Assembly (NCBI GenBank): GCA_027340875.1
Contig: DAIENX010000085.1
Span: forward strand, 1 to 38,815
DNA length: 38,815 bases
DNA from: Elusimicrobiota bacterium
GTDB taxonomy: Bacteria > Elusimicrobiota > Elusimicrobia > Elusimicrobiales > UBA9959
Direction of reading: 5' to 3'
Positions 192 to 38,815 of this stretch are shown one piece after another. The notes under the pieces are model-generated. The model was not told the DNA's origin, did not search any database, and was given only the letters and a program-made list of their open reading frames with translations. Both the position numbers and the translations under genes were made by a program. How positions within the stretch are numbered: position 1 is the stretch's first letter; the number at the start of each line of letters is the position of its first letter.

Positions 192-740
192 ATGCAGGCG
201 AACATAGCGGTCGGTCTGATCGAAACTTCCTCGATAGCCAAGGGCATCGAGTCGCTCGACGCGATGTGCAAGGCCGCCGGCGTGAAGCCGGAGGTGCACC
301 TGCCCATCTCCAAGGGAAAATACATCATAGTCCTCTCCGGTCCCGTAGGCGAGGTCGAGGCCGCCCTCTCGCGGGGTATCGAGATCGCCGGCGATACTGT
401 GCTGGCCAAGCATATCATACGCAACGTGCATTCTGGCGCGCTGGCCGCCCTCAACAAGAAGGTGAAGCCCGATAAGATAGAGGCCGTCGGCATAGTGGAG
501 ACCAAGGAAGCGCTGCCCGCGCTCTTCGCCGCGGACGCCGCGGCCAAGGCCGCCTTCGTGCACGTCGCCGAGGTCAACACCGGCAAGGGCATAGGCGGCA
601 AAGGCTACTTCACCGTAGTGGGCGAGCCGGGCGCGGTGCGTACCGCGGTCGCCGCCGGCGTGAAGGCCATCGGCGAGGACGCCGTGGTCAGCCGCATAGT
701 GATACCGAACGCCCACGAGCATCTGGGCGCGGCGATATAA
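192..740 (+). CDS. Tandem-domain BMC shell protein (BMC-T, PduT-like)
   Basis: Two BMC domains (AVGLIET...D.MCKAA; AVGIVET...AADAAAKAA...GIGGKGY...VIPNAH); RBS AAGGAG at 181-186. Confidence 0.9.
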   Translation: MQANIAVGLIETSSIAKGIESLDAMCKAAGVKPEVHLPISKGKYIIVLSGPVGEVEAALSRGIEIAGDTVLAKHIIRNVHSGALAALNKKVKPDKIEAVGIVETKEALPALFAADAAAKAAFVHVAEVNTGKGIGGKGYFTVVGEPGAVRTAVAAGVKAIGEDAVVSRIVIPNAHEHLGAAI

Positions 741-29581: not shown

Positions 29582-32101
29582 TCAGGAGCACTCCGAGTAG
29601 CCGCAGTCGTGGCAGGTCGGGCCCGAGCAGCCGGACTCGAAGCTGACGTTGGAGGAGTAGCACTTGGGGCAGTACTGGGTGTGGGAGGCGTCCCACAGCT
29701 CCAGCTTCTCCTGCCCGTTGATCTCCTGGTCCGAGGCTATCATGCCGGTGCGCTTCAGGTGGCTTCTGAGCGCGACGGCCAGGCCGTGCGCTATGGAGTT
29801 GATCCTGTTCTCTCCCAGGCCTACCGGCCTGTCGCCCTTCACCGAGTTCAGATGCTTGATGACCTTTATCGGGTCGCCGCCCTCCTCGAGGTACTTGGAG
29901 AGCAGTATGCCCATCAGAGAGGTCAGGCCGCTGATCTCGGTGCCGAGCGGCGGCATGTTGGTGAACACCTGGTAGGGGCCGTGCTCGTTGTAGTTGATGT
30001 GCACGTGCAGCGGGCCGTAGCCGGTCTTCAGCTGGAAGTATTCCGACGACACTCCGAAGGAGTGATAGGCGCCCTTCTTCTTCTTGGTCTTGGCCTGCGG
30101 CTGCTGCTGAGCCTCGGCGGGGCCTATGTTCAGGACCTGCTGCGCCTTGCAGCCGTCGCGGTAGACGGTCAGGCCCTTGCAGCCCAGCTTATGGGCCAGC
30201 AGGTAGCAGTTCTTCACGTCCTCCTCCTTGGCGGAGTTGGGCATGTTGATGGTCTTGGAGACCGCGTTGTCTATGTGCTTCTGGAAGGCCGCCTGGATGC
30301 GGATGTGGTTCTCCACCGTCACGTCGTGTGCGGTGGGGAACAGGTCCTGCACGTGTTTCGGTATCTCCGGGATGCCGCGCACGGCCTTGTGGTTGGCCTC
30401 TATCTTCTTCCAAAGGGTCTTCTCGTCCAGGCCGAAGTAGTTGCTCTCCTTGGCCAGCTGCTTGAACAGCGTATTGACCTCGTAGAAGGTGTCCTTGGAG
30501 TCTGCTTCCTTGCCGTTCTTGATCGCGTCCAGCGCCTTGGCGTTGTAGCGGGTGTAGGCTATAGCGAAGAAAGGCTCTATGCCGGAGCCCTGCAGGCCGG
30601 CCGCTATGGCGATGGTCCCGGTGGGGGCTATCGTGGTGCGGGAGGCGTTGCGGGGCCTGGCGGAGATGCCGCGGAAATGGCGGCTCTCGGTGTCGTAGAT
30701 GGAGCCCTTCCAGTTCTGGAATACGCCGCGCTCCTTGCCCAGCTCCTCCGAGGCCTCCAGCGCCTTGTCGTTGATGAACTTCATCACCTCTTCGGCCTTC
30801 TTGAGGCCTTCGGGGCTGTCGTAGGCCACGCCCAGCTTCACGGCCGTTTCGGCCCAGCCCATCACGCCAAGGCCTATCTTGCGGTTGCCCTTGGCGATCT
30901 TCTCTATCTCCGGGAGGGGGTAGTTGTTGATCTCGATGACGTTGTCCAGGAAGCGGACGGCCTTGTTGACAGTGTCGCCGAGGCGGGTCCAGTCGAGCTT
31001 CGCGTGCGTGACCTCGCCGGTGACGTAGTTGGCGAGGTTTATCGAGCCAAGGTTGCAGGACTCCCACGGCAGCAGCGGCTGCTCGCCGCAGGGGTTGGTG
31101 CTCTCTATCTGGCCCAGCGCCGGGGTCGGGTTGGAATTGGTCTCGTTGATGCGGTCGATGAAGACTATGCCGGGGTCGCCGGTGGCCCAGGCGGACTCGA
31201 CCATCGTGTTGAAGACCTCGCGGGCCTTCAGCGTCCCGGAGGCCTCCTTGGTGCGCGGGTTGACCAGGTCGTAATTGGCGTTGGTCTCCACGGCCTTCAT
31301 GAACTTGTCGTCGAGGGCTATCGAGATGTTGAAGTTCTCCAGCACGCCCTGCTGGGACTTTATCGTGATGAAGTCCTTGATCTCCGGGTGGTTGTACGGG
31401 ATGATGCCCATGTTCGCGCCGCGGCGCGTGCCGCCCTGCTTGACAACGTCGGTCAGCTTGTCGAAGAGCTTCATGAACGAGATCGCGCCGGAGGCCACGC
31501 CGTTGGTCTTCTTGACCACGTCGCCCTTCGGGCGCACGCGGCAGAACGAGAAGCCGGTGCCGCCGCCCGACTTCTGGATCAGGCTCTGCGCGGTCAGCGC
31601 CTTGGCTATGCCCTCCATCGAGTCCGGAACGGGCAGCACGTAGCAGGCCGAGAGCTGCTGCAGGTCGCGCCCGGCGTTCATCAGCGTGGGGGAATTGGGC
31701 AGGAAGTCGAAGCCGGCCATCAGGTTGTAGAAGTCCAGCTTCCAGCGGTCGGCCGCCTCGCGGGCCTCCGGCACGTCCTTGTAGGCCTTCTCGAGGTTGG
31801 CCACGAACTTCATGAAGTTGGCCTCGCGCTCCGAGGATTCGGCGAGACCCTCGTGGAAAAGAAGGGTGCGGGACTGGGTGCCGTCGGTGGCGGCCGGCAC
31901 CGTGCGGACGGCGACCCCCTCGAAGACGCCCCATTTCTCGGCGTCGGGATGGAAGATCAGCTCGGAAAGCGAAATGTTGTGGGCTACGCGCTCGAAAAGT
32001 TCCTCGGCGCTCTTGTCCTCGCGCAGGTACTTGTCCTTTATAACCTTAGCCTGGTTCTCGTTAACGTGTATCTCTTTCTTGCCCAGTGTCATCGTCTTCA
32101 T
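29582..32101 (-). CDS. nrdJ: Class II (adenosylcobalamin-dependent) ribonucleotide reductase
   Basis: PNSPTLMNAG, LSAC, QGGTRRGANMG, TNPCGEQ..ESCNLGS, TIAPTGT, AVSKTIN, TVYRDG; C-terminal CPKC...CHDCGYSEC; no ATP-cone recognised. Confidence 0.93.
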   Translation of the reverse strand: MKTMTLGKKEIHVNENQAKVIKDKYLREDKSAEELFERVAHNISLSELIFHPDAEKWGVFEGVAVRTVPAATDGTQSRTLLFHEGLAESSEREANFMKFVANLEKAYKDVPEAREAADRWKLDFYNLMAGFDFLPNSPTLMNAGRDLQQLSACYVLPVPDSMEGIAKALTAQSLIQKSGGGTGFSFCRVRPKGDVVKKTNGVASGAISFMKLFDKLTDVVKQGGTRRGANMGIIPYNHPEIKDFITIKSQQGVLENFNISIALDDKFMKAVETNANYDLVNPRTKEASGTLKAREVFNTMVESAWATGDPGIVFIDRINETNSNPTPALGQIESTNPCGEQPLLPWESCNLGSINLANYVTGEVTHAKLDWTRLGDTVNKAVRFLDNVIEINNYPLPEIEKIAKGNRKIGLGVMGWAETAVKLGVAYDSPEGLKKAEEVMKFINDKALEASEELGKERGVFQNWKGSIYDTESRHFRGISARPRNASRTTIAPTGTIAIAAGLQGSGIEPFFAIAYTRYNAKALDAIKNGKEADSKDTFYEVNTLFKQLAKESNYFGLDEKTLWKKIEANHKAVRGIPEIPKHVQDLFPTAHDVTVENHIRIQAAFQKHIDNAVSKTINMPNSAKEEDVKNCYLLAHKLGCKGLTVYRDGCKAQQVLNIGPAEAQQQPQAKTKKKKGAYHSFGVSSEYFQLKTGYGPLHVHINYNEHGPYQVFTNMPPLGTEISGLTSLMGILLSKYLEEGGDPIKVIKHLNSVKGDRPVGLGENRINSIAHGLAVALRSHLKRTGMIASDQEINGQEKLELWDASHTQYCPKCYSSNVSFESGCSGPTCHDCGYSECS

Positions 32102-32240: not shown

Positions 32241-32270
32241 AATGTAACAATAGCCAGGAACGGTTGTCAA
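32241..32270 (-). promoter_or_regulatory. Sigma70-type promoter for nrdJ
   Basis: Minus strand TTGACA-N18-TACATT with extended TG. Confidence 0.6.
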
Positions 32271-32315: not shown

Positions 32316-32324
32316 TGTTATAAT
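32316..32324 (+). promoter_or_regulatory. Extended -10 promoter for the sigma54-like/kinase/activator operon
   Basis: TGTTATAAT, 23 nt before ATG 32348. Confidence 0.6.
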
Positions 32325-32347
32325 TCCGGGGGGCGGCCGGGCTCATT

Positions 32348-33394
32348 ATGGAGAAGAAAAAAAAGACGTCGCTGGAGCTTTCCCCGGGACAGCTGCCGCG
32401 GCAGGACCTGCGGCTCTTCTCGGCGCTTTCCTCGACGGAGAGAGACCTGCTGCGACAGGAGGCCGAGCTGCTGGCGGACCCGCTGTTCGCCCGGCTCTCC
32501 GAAGCGGCCCCGGACGGCAGCGCGCCGGTCCTGCGCCGGCGGCTTCCGGGGGCCTCGTACGCGTTCGCCGCCGCCTGCGGGGACGACGCTCTGGCCGCGG
32601 CCGCGGGGCTGGCCGGGGCAGGGGAATGGCTGGCCGACAGGCCGGCCATGCTGGAGCTGGCCCGCCGCGTGGGGCGGGTCAATTTCGAGAAATATTTCCT
32701 GGGCGGGCTACCCGGTTCGTCTTCCGCGGCACGGGCCTGCGGGCTGACCGAGGCGGAGTTCTCTTCTCTGAAGGCTTTCACGGACGCTTTCATTCTGGCC
32801 CATGAGCGGGTGCGGCCGGAGGCCCTGCCGTCGCTCTATCTGCGCTGCTCCGCGGTGGTCGCCGCCGAGGGGGGGCGGCTTTCCGTCTCCTATACCCACC
32901 CGTTCTACGCCAGAGGCGCGTACTGCATAGACCGCAGAGCGCTGGCCAGGTTGTTGAAGTCCGGAGCTCTGGACCGTGCGGAAACGGCCCGGGCTTCGGC
33001 GCTGCTGTCCAAGGCCCAGCGCCTGTCCTGGCGGCGGGCCGGTCTTCACCGCGTCGTCACCGCTCTGCTCGAGGCGCAGGCCGGCTTCCTGCTCGGCAGG
33101 ACCGGGCTGCTCCCGCTTACTCAGCGGGAGATAGCGGCCAGGACCGGCCTGAACCCTTCCACGGTATGCAGGCTTATCTCCGCCCGTACCCTGATGACGC
33201 CCGAGGGGGAGGAGGTGCGCCTTACGGACCTGTTCCTTGCAAAAAGCGCCTATATAATTGATAAAATAAAAAGCATCTTAGGGGACGGCTCTGCAACTAT
33301 GACCGACAGCGAGATAGCCGGCGCGCTCAGGCGCAGCGGCATCCGCGTTCCCAGGCGCAGCGTTAATTTCTACAGGAAGAAGACCGGCGGATGA
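32348..33394 (+). CDS. Highly diverged, short sigma54 (RpoN)-like factor
   Basis: PLTQREIAARTGLNPSTVCRL (RpoN -12 HTH), TPEG..LTDLF, TDSEIA..L...GIRVPRRSVNFYRK (RpoN-box variant). N-terminal LSSTERDLLRQEAELLADPLF resembles region I. Confidence 0.8.
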   Translation: MEKKKKTSLELSPGQLPRQDLRLFSALSSTERDLLRQEAELLADPLFARLSEAAPDGSAPVLRRRLPGASYAFAAACGDDALAAAAGLAGAGEWLADRPAMLELARRVGRVNFEKYFLGGLPGSSSAARACGLTEAEFSSLKAFTDAFILAHERVRPEALPSLYLRCSAVVAAEGGRLSVSYTHPFYARGAYCIDRRALARLLKSGALDRAETARASALLSKAQRLSWRRAGLHRVVTALLEAQAGFLLGRTGLLPLTQREIAARTGLNPSTVCRLISARTLMTPEGEEVRLTDLFLAKSAYIIDKIKSILGDGSATMTDSEIAGALRRSGIRVPRRSVNFYRKKTGG

Positions 33395-34500
33395 GCGAAA
33401 CAAAAGAGAACCAGTTGCAGGCGCTGCAGCGCAGCCTTTTCGAGGCGGTATTCCTCAGGTCCCAGGACCCGATGCTCGTGCTCGATAGGTCGCTCAACGT
33501 GGCGCTGATCAACTCGGGCGCGATGAAGCTGCTGGGCTGGAGCGGCCAGCCGGTGGCCGGCAAGCCGGTCTCCGAACTGGTGCTGGAGAAGGACCTCCGG
33601 GAGTTCGAAGAGCTGACCGAGAAGGCGGTCAAGAGCGGTACGGTACGGAATTACCGGTTCTACATGCTGACCTCGTCGAAGAGCATCGTGCGCCTCTACC
33701 TGACCGTGCAGGCCCTGAAAAGCGAGCCGGGGGAGCTTACCGGCTTCTGTCTTTATCTGTCGCAGGTCTCTCCGGACGAATGGTCCGCGCTGAAGGACCC
33801 GCATGTTTTCCGCAACGCGGTGCGCAAGCTGAACCGGCTCACCTCGATGGGCCAGCTCACCTCTATGTTCGCGCATGACATCAAGAACCCGCTGCACGTT
33901 ATACTTTCCACTTCGGAGCTGCTCCGGGCGCAGGAGGGCCAGCCGGAGGCGGTGCGCAACGGCGCCGAGCTTATAGAGCGCAACGCCAGGCGCGCCTCCA
34001 AGATAGTGAAGACGCTGCTGGATTTCTCGCGCAGCGGGGCCTGCCGCCTCGAGCCGTATTCCGTAGAGACCGCCGCCGAGTCCGCGCTGGAGCTGATAGA
34101 CAGCGCCGCGAAGGCCTCCAAGGTCAAGCTGGAGAAGAAGTTCCGCAAGACCCCGAAGGTGTTCCTCGATCCTCATTACATGCACAGCGTCATCTACAAC
34201 GTGCTGAACAACGCGGTCCAGGCGCTCAGCGGCTCGGATAAGGGAGTGGCGGAAGTCTCCACCGGCTGGCTGGAGGACGACAAGGAAGTGTTTCTGAACG
34301 TCTCCGACAACGGGCCCGGCCTGGAACCGGGCATGCTGGAGAACCTCTTCCGCCCGTTCTTCACCACCAAGGAGACCGGCACCGGCCTCGGGCTTTACCT
34401 CGCCCGCCAGATAATGGACGAGCACGGCGGCCGCATCCTGGTCTCCTCCTCTCCCGACGGAGGAGCGCTGGTCAGCCTGCGCTTCAAGAAGACCGTCTAG
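33391..34500 (+). CDS. Cytoplasmic PAS-domain sensor histidine kinase
   Basis: PAS-like N-terminus without TM; AHDIKNPL (H box), NNAVQA, DNGPG, FTTK, GTGLGL. ATGA overlap with the rpoN-like gene. Confidence 0.93.
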   Translation: MSETKENQLQALQRSLFEAVFLRSQDPMLVLDRSLNVALINSGAMKLLGWSGQPVAGKPVSELVLEKDLREFEELTEKAVKSGTVRNYRFYMLTSSKSIVRLYLTVQALKSEPGELTGFCLYLSQVSPDEWSALKDPHVFRNAVRKLNRLTSMGQLTSMFAHDIKNPLHVILSTSELLRAQEGQPEAVRNGAELIERNARRASKIVKTLLDFSRSGACRLEPYSVETAAESALELIDSAAKASKVKLEKKFRKTPKVFLDPHYMHSVIYNVLNNAVQALSGSDKGVAEVSTGWLEDDKEVFLNVSDNGPGLEPGMLENLFRPFFTTKETGTGLGLYLARQIMDEHGGRILVSSSPDGGALVSLRFKKTV

Positions 34501-34510
34501 GCCCTTTCCG

Positions 34511-35878
34511 ATGGGAAACATACTTATCGCCGAGGACGACGCGGACACGCGTTACGTACTGAAGGCCGCGCTGGAGAGCGGCAGGCATAACTGCGCCGCC
34601 GCGGCTTCCGGGACCGAGGCGCTGTCTCTCGCCGAAACGCTGACTTTCGACGCGGTGGTGCTGGACCTGGTGCTGGGGGATTCCGACGGCCTGGTCATCC
34701 TGGAGAAGCTGAAGAGCGACGATCCCGGCCTGCCGGTTGTGATCCTCACCGGCCACGCCGACGTGCAGAGCGCCGTGAAGGCGATGAAGCTCGGCGCCCT
34801 CGACTACCTGATAAAACCGTTCGGCAACGAGGAGCTGCTGCTGATAATGGAGAAGGCGGTGAAGGAACGTCGCCTGAAGCGCGAGTTCGACGCGCTGCGC
34901 AGCCACGTGAAAAGAGCGTACGGCTCCGAGCCCGTGACCGGCTCGAGCCGGGAGATCAAGAACACCGCGGCCCTGGCGCGCCAGGTCGCTTCCACCGATC
35001 TTACCGTAATACTTTCCGGCCCGTCCGGCTCGGGCAAGGAGGTCTGGGCGCGCGAGATACACAGGCTGAGCTCGCGCGGGGACAGCCCTTTCGTCGCGCT
35101 CGACTGCGGCGCTTTGCCGGAGAACCTGGTGGAAAGCGAGCTGTTCGGTTATGAGCGCGGCGCCTTTACCGGGGCCGACCGGCGCAAGCCCGGCCTTTTC
35201 GAGGCCGCCTTCGGCGGGACCCTTTTCCTCGACGAGATCGCCAACCTCTCCCCCGGTACGCAGGCGAAGCTGCTCCGCGTGCTGGAAGAAAGGCGTATAC
35301 GCCATCTGGGGGGCAAAAAGGATATTCCCGTGGATACGCGGGTGATAGCGGCAGCGAACCGGGACCTTCCCTCCTGCATCAGGGAAGGCTCTTTCAGGGA
35401 AGACCTGTACCACCGGCTCAACCAGTTCACTTTGCGCGTGCCTTCGCTCGCCGAGCGCAAGGAAGACATCCCTACCCTGGCGGCCTATTTTTTGAGGGAG
35501 GCGGAAAAACTGGTCAATAAAAAAATAGAATCCATTTCCGATTCCGCCATGGAGGCGCTTTCCGCCTATTCCTGGCCGGGGAATGTCCGCGAGCTTAAGA
35601 ACGTCATCATCCGCGCCGCGCTGCTCAGTGACGGCAGGATACTTCCGGAGCATCTGGGTATGGGCGGCGCCGCGTCTTCCGTTCCGGCCGGGGGGGCGGC
35701 CATGCCGGCCAATTTCGATCTTAAGGAAAATCTCCGCCTGGCCCGCGCTTCAACGGAGCGCCGTCTTATTGCGGCCGCCCTGGCCGAAACAGGCGGGAAT
35801 AAGCTGCAGGCTGCCAAGCTCCTTTCCATAGACCGCAAAGCCCTGTACACTAAGCTTAAAGAATACTCGATAGAGTAG
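34511..35878 (+). CDS. NtrC-family sigma54-dependent response regulator
   Basis: Receiver (EDD, VLD, IKP), GPSGSGKE, ESELFG, GAFTGA, LFLDEI, FREDLYHRL, WPGNVREL, Fis-type HTH. Confidence 0.96.
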   Translation: MGNILIAEDDADTRYVLKAALESGRHNCAAAASGTEALSLAETLTFDAVVLDLVLGDSDGLVILEKLKSDDPGLPVVILTGHADVQSAVKAMKLGALDYLIKPFGNEELLLIMEKAVKERRLKREFDALRSHVKRAYGSEPVTGSSREIKNTAALARQVASTDLTVILSGPSGSGKEVWAREIHRLSSRGDSPFVALDCGALPENLVESELFGYERGAFTGADRRKPGLFEAAFGGTLFLDEIANLSPGTQAKLLRVLEERRIRHLGGKKDIPVDTRVIAAANRDLPSCIREGSFREDLYHRLNQFTLRVPSLAERKEDIPTLAAYFLREAEKLVNKKIESISDSAMEALSAYSWPGNVRELKNVIIRAALLSDGRILPEHLGMGGAASSVPAGGAAMPANFDLKENLRLARASTERRLIAAALAETGGNKLQAAKLLSIDRKALYTKLKEYSIE

Positions 35879-35879
35879 T

Positions 35880-35941
35880 TGTAGATTTTTTTCCACAATT
35901 ATTATGTAGAATATATTCTACAGTGTGGAATATGTTCTACA
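35880..35941. promoter_or_regulatory. Three TGT-N12-ACA palindromic boxes; candidate enhancer (UAS) for the bEBP
   Basis: TGTAGATTTTTTTCCACA (35880-35897), TGTAGAATATATTCTACA (35905-35922, perfect palindrome), TGTGGAATATGTTCTACA (35924-35941). Confidence 0.75.
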
Positions 35942-36130
35942 CACGCGTTTAACAAGAATTTTACTTTTCGGACTTATTTCCCTTATTGTATATCTCCTAT
36001 AATTTAGGCATGCTAAAAGCGCAAACGGCTATGAAGAAGCCCTGCCGCGATACAGCATCTGGTCAAACTTTCAGTGAAAATAGCGGGAGCTATCCGGGAA
36101 CGGTTTCGGATTCTCGCTGCCGCATAGCAT

Positions 36131-36148
36131 TTGGCAAGATCGTTGCTA
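36131..36148 (+). promoter_or_regulatory. Sigma54 -24/-12 promoter
   Basis: TTGGCAAGATCGTTGCTA: GG (36133-36134), N10, GC (36145-36146), fitting TGGCA-N-TTGCW. Confidence 0.8.
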
Positions 36149-36211
36149 TACTTAACGTTAGGGGATATTGTCTATAGAATTTTCCTGTTTCGGTATTTTT
36201 CCGGAGGCATT

Positions 36212-38815
36212 ATGAAAACGCTGAAAGCGATGCTTGGGATACTTACGGGTCTGCTCCTGCTGCCGGTCCTGGCGGCTGCTGCCCCGTCCTACATCAACTA
36301 CCAGGGGAGGCTCGTGGACGCCAGCGGCAACCCGCTGAGCGGATCGTACTCGATCACGTTCAATATCTACGGCGTCTCCAGCGGCGGCAGCGCGGTCTGG
36401 ACCGAGGTCCAGCCCAGCGTTTCCGTCGATAACGGCATCTTCAGCGCCAAGCTCGGCTCCGTGACCGCCCTGCCTCCCTCGGTGTTCGCCTCCGACACCA
36501 GGTACCTCGGCGTGACCATAGGCTCCGACGCGGAAATGTCCCCGCGCGTCCAGCTGCTCTCCGTCCCGTACGCCATCTATGCCGCCAGCGCCGCCAGCGT
36601 CGGCTCGGCCGGCCAGACCGTGGACATCTCCACCGGCGTCAACGTGACCGGCAATATCAACGCCTCCGGCAACGTCATCGCGGCCAAGTTCGTAGGCGAC
36701 GGCTCCGCCCTGACCGGCGTCAGCGTAGGCGGCAGCTCCATAATTCTCCCCATCGTTTCCACCCATATCGCCTCCGGCGGCGTTCTCAACGTGAATCTCG
36801 GTACCGGCATCGACGCCGCCAAGATCGGCGGCGGCACGGTAAGCAATACCGTCTTCGCCTACCTGGCCAATGTTACCAGCGACGTGCAGACCCAGATCAG
36901 CGGGAAGCTCTCGCCCACCGGCGACGGCTCCAATCTCACCGGTATAATCCATTCGAGCGCTACCGGCACCTACCCGCTGTCCATAACCGGCAACGCCGCA
37001 AATATAACCGGTAATTTGGCGGCCGGCCAGGTTGCAGCCGGACTACTGGGCCCCAATGTCATCGCTTCTTCGGTCTCTCCTACTGCGTTATATACATTTT
37101 CCACCTGTGCCGCTGGTGACGTGCTTAAGGCTTCCGGGGGAGTGTGGGCCTGCGGCACCGATAATACCGGCGCCGGTGGTACAGTGACAGGCAGCGGCAC
37201 TACCGGCCAGATCGCTTACTGGACCGCCGGCTCGTCGCTCGGCACCACGGATTATATCGGCGCTCGGATAATGCTGGGCCTTGTGCCAGGCACCAGTGTG
37301 CAGGCTTATAGCGCCAATCTGGCGACTTACTCCGGCATAGCGCCTTCGGCCAACATGCAGTCTTTTCTCGGCTCAGCGGATTACGCTACGATGCGCACCA
37401 ATCTGAGCCTGGTCCCCGGTACCAATGTATTGGCGCCTAATGGCGACGGTTCCGGCCTGAACGGTGTGATCACTTCTACCGCCGCTATTGTCGCAACGCT
37501 GGCTACCAAGTACGACAACTCTAATTTTGTGGCTGGTACCAACTATCTGGCCCCTAACGGCAACGGTTCGGGTCTGACGTCGTTGACCGCGGGTAACATA
37601 GCGGCCGGCAACTTAGGCGCCAACGTGATAGCCTCGTCGGTGGCGGTGGGGTCGGTGTACGACAACGCGATAGCGGGCATGTCGTCGTCGAAGCTTACCG
37701 GCGCGCTGCCGGCTATAGACGGTTCCGCGCTGACGGGTGTGACCGCCACCAACGTGACGGCTGCCGGCGTGCAGGCCGGTTCGCTGGGTGCCAGCGTAAT
37801 AGCTTCCTCAATAGCGGTGAACGGGGTGTACACGAACGCGATACAGGCGCTGGCGGTGACCGACGCCAAGATCAACGACGTGGCGGGCGGCAAGATAACC
37901 GGTGCCGGGAGCATAGTGGCGGACCGGATAGCGGCGGGCAGTCTGGGCGCCAACGTGATAGCGTCTTCGGTGGCGGTGAACGGCATATACACTAACGCTG
38001 TGCAGGACGCGGCGATAACGAACGCCAAACTGGCGGCCACCGGTTTGGACCTTAGCAAGTTCAGCGTTGGTACGCTGGCCGCCAATCTGGTGGCATCGGG
38101 TTCGCTGGGCGCCAACGTGATAGCGTCGTCCGTGGCGCTGAACGCGGTGCAGGACGGTTCGATCGTGGGCGTGAGCGGCAGCAAGGTGTCCGGCAACATC
38201 AGCGGCAACGCGGCCAACATAACGGGCAACCTGGCGGCGTCGCAGGTGGCGTCTGGTTCGCTGGGCGCGAGCGTGATGGCGTCATCCGTGGCCCTGCCCG
38301 GCTTCTACAGCGCGCCTGAAGTTCGCACCGCGCTGGGCCTGGCGATCGGCACGAACGTTCTGGCCCCCAACGGCAACGGTTCGGGTCTGACGTCGCTGAC
38401 CGCGGGTAACATATCGGCCGGCAATTTGGGCGCCAGCGTAATAGCCTCCTCAATAGCGGTGGACGGGGTGTACGCGAACGCGATACAGGCGCTGGCGGTG
38501 ACCGACGCCAAGATCAACGACGTGGCGGGCGGCAAGATAACCGGCGCCGGGAGCATAGTGGCGGACCGGATAGCGGCGGGCAGCCTGGGCGCCAGCGTGA
38601 TAGCGTCTTCGGTGGCGGTGGGGTCGGTATACGACAACGCGATAGCGGGCATGTCGTCTTCGAAGCTTACCGGCGCGCTGCCGGCTATAGACGGCTCCGC
38701 GCTGACGGGTGTGGTAGCCACCAACGTGACGGCAGCCGGCGTGCAGGCCGGTTCGCTGGGCGCCAGCGTAATAGCTTCCTCAATAGCGCTGAACGCAGTG
38801 CAGGACGGTTCGATC
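36212..38815 (+). CDS. Large secreted phage-tail-fibre-like repeat protein (putative adhesin), at least 868 aa, 3' truncated by window
   Basis: RBS GGAGG, ATG 36212; same frame at every point checked up to the window end (absent from ORF track). Signal peptide; INYQGRLVD...SPRVQLLSVPYA N-domain; CAAGDVLKASGGVWACGTD; LGLVPGTSVQAY; repeated GSLGAxVIASS. Confidence 0.88.
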   Translation, partial: MKTLKAMLGILTGLLLLPVLAAAAPSYINYQGRLVDASGNPLSGSYSITFNIYGVSSGGSAVWTEVQPSVSVDNGIFSAKLGSVTALPPSVFASDTRYLGVTIGSDAEMSPRVQLLSVPYAIYAASAASVGSAGQTVDISTGVNVTGNINASGNVIAAKFVGDGSALTGVSVGGSSIILPIVSTHIASGGVLNVNLGTGIDAAKIGGGTVSNTVFAYLANVTSDVQTQISGKLSPTGDGSNLTGIIHSSATGTYPLSITGNAANITGNLAAGQVAAGLLGPNVIASSVSPTALYTFSTCAAGDVLKASGGVWACGTDNTGAGGTVTGSGTTGQIAYWTAGSSLGTTDYIGARIMLGLVPGTSVQAYSANLATYSGIAPSANMQSFLGSADYATMRTNLSLVPGTNVLAPNGDGSGLNGVITSTAAIVATLATKYDNSNFVAGTNYLAPNGNGSGLTSLTAGNIAAGNLGANVIASSVAVGSVYDNAIAGMSSSKLTGALPAIDGSALTGVTATNVTAAGVQAGSLGASVIASSIAVNGVYTNAIQALAVTDAKINDVAGGKITGAGSIVADRIAAGSLGANVIASSVAVNGIYTNAVQDAAITNAKLAATGLDLSKFSVGTLAANLVASGSLGANVIASSVALNAVQDGSIVGVSGSKVSGNISGNAANITGNLAASQVASGSLGASVMASSVALPGFYSAPEVRTALGLAIGTNVLAPNGNGSGLTSLTAGNISAGNLGASVIASSIAVDGVYANAIQALAVTDAKINDVAGGKITGAGSIVADRIAAGSLGASVIASSVAVGSVYDNAIAGMSSSKLTGALPAIDGSALTGVVATNVTAAGVQAGSLGASVIASSIALNAVQDGSI
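37547..38815 (+). repeat. Near-identical intragenic modules joined at a GSLGA(N/S)VIASS node
   Basis: Approximate pairs: 37547-37620/38359-38432, 37641-37816/38612-38787, 37790-37978/38430-38620. Confidence 0.9.

Follow-up and report, generated by a model that had tools for sequence, protein, structure and literature searches.

The 38,815-nt contig DAIENX010000085.1 of an Elusimicrobiota bacterium (assembly GCA_027340875.1; hereafter the window) ends with a cassette of four genes that encode a compact sigma-54-like factor, a sensor kinase, a bacterial enhancer-binding protein (bEBP) and a secreted fibre-like protein. Three palindromic boxes and a -24/-12 promoter motif lie between the last two genes. 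We consider it probable that the compact sigma, the kinase, the bEBP, the boxes and the -24/-12 motif are a dedicated two-component switch for one surface-fibre operon. The initial annotation of this DNA had proposed a dedicated sigma-54 packaged with its own activator, sensor and target. The linkage of the genes and the single-copy promoter motif speak for this proposal. The part that did not stand is an extra factor beside a canonical rpoN: a search of the genome for such a second gene found none.

The elements of the cassette were found where the initial annotation had placed them (Table 1). An extended -10 element precedes the tightly packed rpoN-like, PAS kinase and NtrC-type genes, and the kinase open reading frame (ORF) overlaps the sigma ORF by 4 nt. 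The kinase has no hydrophobic segment. The bEBP is of the NtrC type, with a REC domain, a complete set of AAA+ motifs including GAFTGA, and a Fis-type helix-turn-helix (HTH). The first of three TGT-N12-ACA boxes begins 1 nt past the bEBP stop codon. The promoter TGGCAAGATCGTTGCT is located 190-252 nt beyond the boxes, in agreement with the earlier estimate of 190-250 bp; the combination of GG-N10-GC with upstream palindromes is that of a predicted sigma-54 promoter. An IHF-like site and a conserved TATAAT, both between the boxes and this promoter, had gone unnoticed in the initial annotation. The last gene has 868 codons from its ATG to the contig end, which corresponds to the secreted fibre-like protein of at least 868 aa that had been claimed.

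Table 1. Features of the cassette and its surroundings in the window
Feature	Position	Strand	Basis or remark
Likely divergent sigma-70 promoter of the ribonucleotide reductase gene, TTGACA-18-TG-TACATT	32241-32270	-	sequence
Extended -10 (TG-n-TATAAT), predicted sigma-70 promoter of the cassette, TGTTATAAT	32316..32324	+	sequence; invariant in 20/20 aligned upstream regions
Compact sigma-54-like factor, type A, 348 aa	32348..33394	+	PF04552, AlphaFold, Foldseek, VIA, HHalign
Parts of the sigma: predicted region I hook; remodelled core-binding part; extra-long helix; HTH; RpoN box	residues 16-43; ~56-166; 210-243; 259-277; 335-343		
PAS-HisKA-HATPase sensor kinase, predicted cytoplasmic, His162	33391..34500	+	domains; 73-95% identity in 20/20 relatives
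REC-AAA+-HTH bEBP: Asp52, Walker A and B, GAFTGA, R-finger, sensor II	34511..35878	+	domains, motifs; 80-95% identity in relatives
Three 18-bp palindromic boxes TGT-N12-ACA, predicted upstream activator sequences	35880-35897, 35905-35922, 35924-35941	.	conservation, matrix scan, shuffles
IHF-like site, predicted DNA-bending	35950..35962	+	loose pattern in 16/18 loci
Conserved TATAAT with poor -35 (TATTTC/CATTTC)	35998..36003	+	18/18 loci, constant spacing to box 3
-24/-12 promoter TGGCAAGATCGTTGCT (type A motif, GG-N10-GC)	36132..36147	+	predicted start ~36157-36158
Fibre-like secreted protein truncated at the contig end (at least 868 aa)	36212..38815	+	signal-peptide-like start, MAT_N-like domain, repeats

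The boxes and the promoter are hardly matched elsewhere in the genome. In a genome-wide scan, which the initial annotation had suggested, we used matrices trained without the window's own genome and its nearest relative. Only the three boxes of the window exceeded 14 bits; the promoter reached 28.9 bits, and the next-best site 14.4. Both patterns are also beyond chance: when the 333 nt between the bEBP and the fibre gene were put through 5000 dinucleotide shuffles, 0 yielded three boxes and 3 yielded the promoter pattern. The type A promoter pattern was found in 26 of 40 genomes, a single copy in each (1 match in the control). Among genomes of the same genus, it is present, again in single copy, in 25 of the 28 with an orthologue of the window's sigma (type A) and in none of the 8 without it. 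The single-copy promoter motif, together with the presence of only three boxes in the genome, points to a single target.

The arrangement is conserved among relatives. We compared 36 genomes of the same genus, 28 of which have a type A sigma orthologue (54-84% identity), and examined 20 of these 28 loci closely. All 20 contain a divergent ribonucleotide reductase gene followed by the sigma, the kinase and the bEBP. The fibre gene is present in 19, and the remaining contig stops within the bEBP gene. At least one box occupies the equivalent place in 17 of 19 relatives, and the -24/-12 promoter stands directly behind the bEBP gene in 17 of 19; in the other two, insertions carried the promoter away together with the fibre gene. 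In one genome (G036) the fibre gene and the cis-elements are found together, 9 kb away from the bEBP gene. Among 20 loci from other genera of the family, six are type A cassettes. Five of these, from five genera, have the boxes, the TGGCAA...TTGC promoter and the fibre gene, with a sigma identity of 31-42%; the sixth region stops at the bEBP. Thus, the synteny that had been proposed for checking extends from the genus to five other genera.

The sigma and bEBP genes are associated in the genus beyond type A. A bEBP gene lies within 5 kb of 52 of 59 sigma genes, 52 of 65 bEBP genes have a sigma gene nearby, and the numbers of the two are equal in 25 of 36 genomes. Both were lost jointly in two genomes of the genus and in four small-genome relatives that were searched for both. 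Among 60 bEBPs adjoining sigmas, GAFTGA is present in 43 and GAFTDA in nine.

The initial annotation had allowed that the protein encoded at 32348 might lack a sigma-54 fold. According to the structural models, the 348-aa protein has this fold in its C-terminal half. The only sigma-54 Pfam domain recognized in it is the C-terminal RpoN domain PF04552 (54.3 bits, cut-off 22.8); neither AID (PF00309) nor CBD (PF04963) matches, and the score against the equivalog TIGR02395 is 57 bits against a cut-off of 277.35. The AlphaFold model, built with 150 sequences in the alignment, has a pLDDT (predicted local distance difference test) of 93.3. The first 29 Foldseek matches listed (ranks 1-30) are all sigma-54, with a low overall TM (template modelling) score of ~0.35. 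VIA aligned residues ~156-348, which include the long helix, the HTH and the RpoN domain, to sigma-54 residues 267-467 (Z 10.1/10.0, root-mean-square deviation (rmsd) 7.2/6.4, 185/179 residues aligned). For the RpoN domain, VIA matched 2o9l (Z 6.9, rmsd 1.9, 50 residues), and the alignment to 5nsr covers residues 16-348 (Z 8.9, rmsd 9.2). In HHalign, using a profile of 67 canonical sigma-54 proteins, the match was 99.9% across residues 98-348. Residues 98-150 map there onto the second half of the core-binding domain with a 21-residue deletion; for the first half of that domain and for the canonical region II, no counterpart was found in the compact sigma. The N-terminal helices 16-28 and 31-43 have high pLDDT and resemble region I. 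R229 is invariant (24/24) and aligned with R336 of E. coli sigma-54, whose mutation bypasses the activator requirement according to PMC7057263. The RpoN-box residues R336, R337 and R343 of the compact protein are likewise invariant (24/24). We call the compact protein sigma-54-like by its DNA-reading half and its partners. Two proteins, P0068 (914 aa) and P0073 (839 aa), are compact sigma-54 factors fused to ~500-570 C-terminal residues that have no Pfam match.

The fibre start codon at 36212 is preceded by GGAGG at 36203. A longer reading from TTG 36131 was dismissed because the GGAGG and the conserved N-terminus favour the ATG. The repeats are rich in Ala, Gly, Ser and Val and include ASS[VI]A eight times. 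The protein matches NF053851, the family of the mosaic adhesive trimer (MAT) domain, with 48.9 bits (E 6e-13), i.e., below the cut-off of 60, over about half of the model. Six fibre relatives also remain below 60 (31.9-48 bits); the E-values, from 1e-7 to 1e-13, show kinship of the predicted N-terminal domain to the MAT domain. Six relatives are complete: five are free of N and end with a stop codon (742-1474 aa), and one has 574 aa. Their C-termini differ, and no S74 domain was found in any of the six. Where contigs continue, the fibre gene is followed by genes of a protein with a T9SS-CTD/FlgD-like end, of a PorV-like LysM protein, and of a long protein with a weak SMC-like match, probably a coiled coil. 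From these sequences, the fibre is likely a surface adhesin with a dedicated display route. Three more genes of the same genome contain the fibre N-terminal domain (C44:26470, C76:34178 and C111:38319), and no -24/-12 site precedes any of them. Close to the C76 copy there are homologues of the genes for the CTD-like and PorV-like proteins. PorV-like matches are present on seven contigs of the genome.

By analogy with known sigma-54 systems, the switch probably works as follows. The sigma-70 extended -10 promoter would drive expression of the cassette, and the compact sigma would bind RNA polymerase and wait at the -24/-12 site as a closed complex. The PAS domain would sense a signal, which is suggested to be cytoplasmic because the domain is soluble, and the kinase would phosphorylate Asp52 of the activator. 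The activator would then oligomerise on the three boxes and loop to the polymerase with the aid of the IHF-like site. The latter has one to two mismatches to the consensus WATCAA-N4-TTR, and the genome has one gene of the HU/IHF family, not identified as IHF. Finally, the GAFTGA loop would remodel region I, the complex would open with a start at ~36158, and the fibre gene would be turned on, probably with the three conserved genes behind it.

The window's genome encodes two compact sigmas and two bEBPs, and each sigma gene precedes a kinase gene and a bEBP gene. An apparent third sigma (C65:2-283) is an N-terminus only and likely represents the missing start of the second copy. The latter (type B, contig C86) is followed by a kinase, a bEBP and CxxCH-rich proteins read as multiheme cytochromes. 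Its 46-kb contig has four intergenic TGGCAG-N4-GCTGC sites, one of them readable on both strands; elsewhere in the genome this motif, which was defined from the C86 sites themselves, has one match. For the looser TGGCA-N6-YTGC, 7 of 26 matches in the genome are on the type B contig, which makes up 1.6% of the genome. In C86:1-21000, as in locus L057, the type B cassette stands ahead of multiheme-cytochrome-like, TPR and NHL-repeat-like genes. The compared type B proteins are 100% identical between this genome and relative G023, while the type A sigmas share only 84%, which suggests that the type B cluster may be a recently transferred respiratory island.

A third type, C, occurs in the genus, and its motif is present in 26 of the 28 genomes with the type C paralog and in 1 of the 8 without it. 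In a quick tree, for which 14 canonical proteins near one query served as outgroup, a 100% branch sets type A apart, and another does so for type C. The type C sigma gene is divergent from its bEBP gene and has TGGCAYWAWWATTGYTC-like sites ahead of it in 14/14 loci. The palindrome there, TTTTCA-NN-TGAAAA, is unlike the type A boxes. Type C sites number 1-9 per genome, many of them ahead of genes of small proteins with signal-peptide-like starts, and there are extra bEBPs elsewhere in the genome. In loci L060-L075 the -12 element (TTGYTC) lies mostly 17-18 nt ahead of a TATAAT-like hexamer of the type C sigma gene. Such overlap of a sigma-54 site with the predicted sigma-70 promoter of the sigma's own gene suggests autoregulation. 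Right behind the type C bEBP gene, a conserved ORF of ~55 aa (motif LLHDLRSKCSSLKSAAELY) is found in all 14 of the loci printed; it resembles a lone histidine-kinase dimerisation helix pair.

A profile scan of 251 genomes of the phylum found compact sigmas in 73 and canonical rpoN in one. The single canonical genome (G206) is the only one of the 74 matching genomes to carry a CBD; the named close relatives of its rpoN are labelled Omnitrophica, so this gene may be a transfer or a binning error. Two large families have 1 match in 70 genomes and 0 in 84; given the small genomes in the first family, we take both as host-associated lineages. Thus the compact form is the usual sigma-54 of the phylum, with 1-4 paralogs, mostly beside a bEBP. 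In the window's genome (an assembly that is 92% complete) neither canonical rpoN nor the AID and CBD domains were found. No rpoN precedes hpf there either; the hpf-hprK-rapZ-PTS-like cluster has an ABC-transporter-like gene pair upstream. The assembly lacks rpoB and rpoC, and therefore the argument from absence is carried by the relatives. The homologues bearing names are all from Elusimicrobia. At 50% identity, 330 clusters match the compact sigma with E <1e-30; similar clusters labelled Chloroflexota and Armatimonadota in the Atlas hint at members beyond the phylum.

Of 24 cassettes with a bEBP gene in the other families, 12 have a -24/-12 site just past this gene. Translations read by eye suggest ketosynthase-like, response regulator-like and large secreted proteins as targets. 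In L133, L137, L138, L146 and L151 the sigma-bEBP cassette is followed by such a site and a FabF-like ketosynthase gene, and in L150 the site is ahead of a FlgF/G-like gene, also by eye.

We are less sure that every compact paralog has a preference for its own activator and promoter, with several private sigma-54 circuits in place of a global rpoN. The broadest version of this idea, which falls somewhat short of being probable, is that Elusimicrobiota have swapped the global sigma-54 for minimal factors in which region II and half of the core-binding domain are missing. These would be used like extracytoplasmic function (ECF) modules, each with its own activator, enhancer and promoter dialect, and would be naturally orthogonal; type A would serve a single MAT-like adhesive fibre operon.

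Several points weigh against these readings. Aligned in isolation, the core-binding part gave only 27 columns at 53.9%. The middle part (56-166) folded alone had a pLDDT of 75, and a fold search with it gave no clear match, sigma-54 residues 179-262 appearing at rank 43 with Z 3.9. Since the CBD is not recognized by Pfam and the middle part has no clear structural match, we infer polymerase binding by the compact sigma. A complex prediction with beta-prime residues 1-450 and the beta C-terminus from a genome of the same genus scored 0.00, which speaks neither for nor against such binding. The profile alignment of region I to sigma-54 residues 1-46 was non-significant. The promoter motifs were defined on the same loci in which they were later counted and the genomes are kin, and therefore the motif counts are not independent tests. 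The differing motifs could mean separate descent rather than mutual exclusion. With up to nine promoters and extra bEBPs in type C, the picture of one sigma and one target is not general. In the other families, 39 high-scoring loci picked from about 115 matches have a bEBP within ~6 kb in only 24 cases. Absences in the window's assembly alone are weak evidence. Finally, the TATAAT at 35998 is a possible second promoter, of sigma-70 type by its sequence, which may be served by the same activator. An ORF from the ATG behind it is conserved neither in length nor in sequence. Relatives show no visible conservation of another, weak sigma-70-like pair at 36152-36180.

The first alternative is that the compact proteins are an ordinary fast-evolving RpoN with interchangeable paralogs. 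Specificity would then come from the bEBP and the boxes, and linkage would only co-ordinate expression and inheritance. The replacement of canonical rpoN across the phylum (73 against 1 of 251) suits this explanation, as do the TGGCA and TGC/TGT kept in all motifs and the 15 of 39 other-family loci without a bEBP nearby. The correlation of sigma and bEBP distances (rho 0.58) is expected from common descent too. Against interchangeability stands the divergence of the paralogs: in genomes with both types A and C, the sigmas are only ~25% and the AAA domains ~39% identical. The DNA-reading residues of the HTH and the RpoN box differ between the paralog types, and each promoter motif tracks its own sigma type, other genera included. 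Rhodobacter paralogs are not interchangeable either, according to PMC11999139. We regard this alternative as unlikely.

The other alternative, which we find very improbable, is that sigma-70 accounts for most transcription of the fibre gene, from the TATAAT at 35998. From the boxes, the bEBP would then serve as a class I activator or as a repressor, and the sigma-54-like protein, its polymerase binding lost, would be only a repressor or roadblock at the -24/-12 site. The hexamer keeps a fixed spacing from box 3, whereas the distance to the -24/-12 site ranges from 31 to 209 nt; the -35 is poor, the first half of the core-binding domain is unrecognisable, and the type C -12 element 17-18 nt ahead of a TATAAT-like hexamer suits repression. 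Against this stand the GAFTGA-type loop retained in the bEBPs, the R336 equivalent and two N-terminal helices retained in the sigma, the joint losses of sigma and bEBP, and the sites behind the bEBP in half of the other-family cassettes. The dedicated switch is our preferred explanation.

In L044, L050 and L052-L054, the match to the class II ribonucleotide reductase encoded ahead of the cassette is broken by ~1.1-1.2 kb near residue 338-357, the pattern expected of an intein or intron; the copy in the window (29582-32101) has no such break.

The compact family amounts to a natural deletion experiment on sigma-54 and would reveal how much of region II and of the core-binding domain activator-dependent initiation can do without. 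A published survey demands all three Pfam domains (PMC12316311), and surveys of this kind would miss the compact family and score the phylum as lacking rpoN. With natural paralog sets that have distinct promoter motifs, the evolution of sigma-54 specificity can be tested directly. Such sets could also supply orthogonal transcription parts, which so far have been engineered through mutation of R456 according to PMC12096077. Tight regulation of a MAT-like fibre also hints that free-living Elusimicrobia attach to cells or surfaces under the control of a signal. Searches on Elusimicrobia or Elusimicrobiota and on atypical sigma-54 without the core-binding domain, which did not extend to subscription journals, found no published description of this compact, cassette-packaged family; in the main text of an Elusimicrobia genome survey preprint neither “sigma” nor “rpoN” appears. 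We regard as new that the factors are compact, that they take the place of canonical rpoN across the phylum, that they come physically packaged with their activator and target, and that their promoters differ at multiple positions. Specialised RpoN paralogs with cognate activators are already known from Cereibacter sphaeroides.

The MAT fibres of Bdellovibrio bacteriovorus have a signal peptide, a conserved beta-rich N-terminal domain and a variable length and C-terminus, as described in PMC10769870. The predicted fibre of the window is similar in N-terminal layout and, among its relatives, in the variable C-termini; it differs by its score below the NF053851 cut-off and by the lack of an S74 domain in the six complete relatives. 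The cassette shares with canonical sigma-54 systems the -24/-12 promoter, the GAFTGA activator and the upstream palindromes. With canonical sigma-54 itself (E. coli, Klebsiella, 477 aa; Aquifex aeolicus sigma-N, PDB 5ui5) the compact sigma shares the extra-long helix, the HTH, the RpoN box RR..YR and the R336 equivalent. It is shorter, with 348 aa and a family median of 359 against 467 in the canonical sample, and differs in the RpoN box (SRRSVNxYR against ARRTVAKYR) and the HTH (NPSTVCR against HESTVSR).

Xanthomonas RpoN2 is reportedly a second sigma-54 devoted to a flagellar surface structure, and its gene is said to lie beside fleQ. It is of canonical type and works alongside RpoN1, whereas the predicted target of the window's compact sigma is one fibre operon. 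The RpoN paralogs of Cereibacter (Rhodobacter) sphaeroides are full-length RpoN proteins. The compact family shares with them the presence of several paralogs in one cell, seen here as co-occurrence with bEBPs only. According to PMC11999139 and PMC3162934, RpoN1-4 of C. sphaeroides have cognate bEBPs (NifA, FleQ, AprX), and promoter differences add to paralog specificity, the RpoN1 and RpoN2 promoters differing only at -11. In contrast, the compact factors are packaged with kinase, activator and target, are only ~25% identical to each other, and have motifs that differ at several positions.

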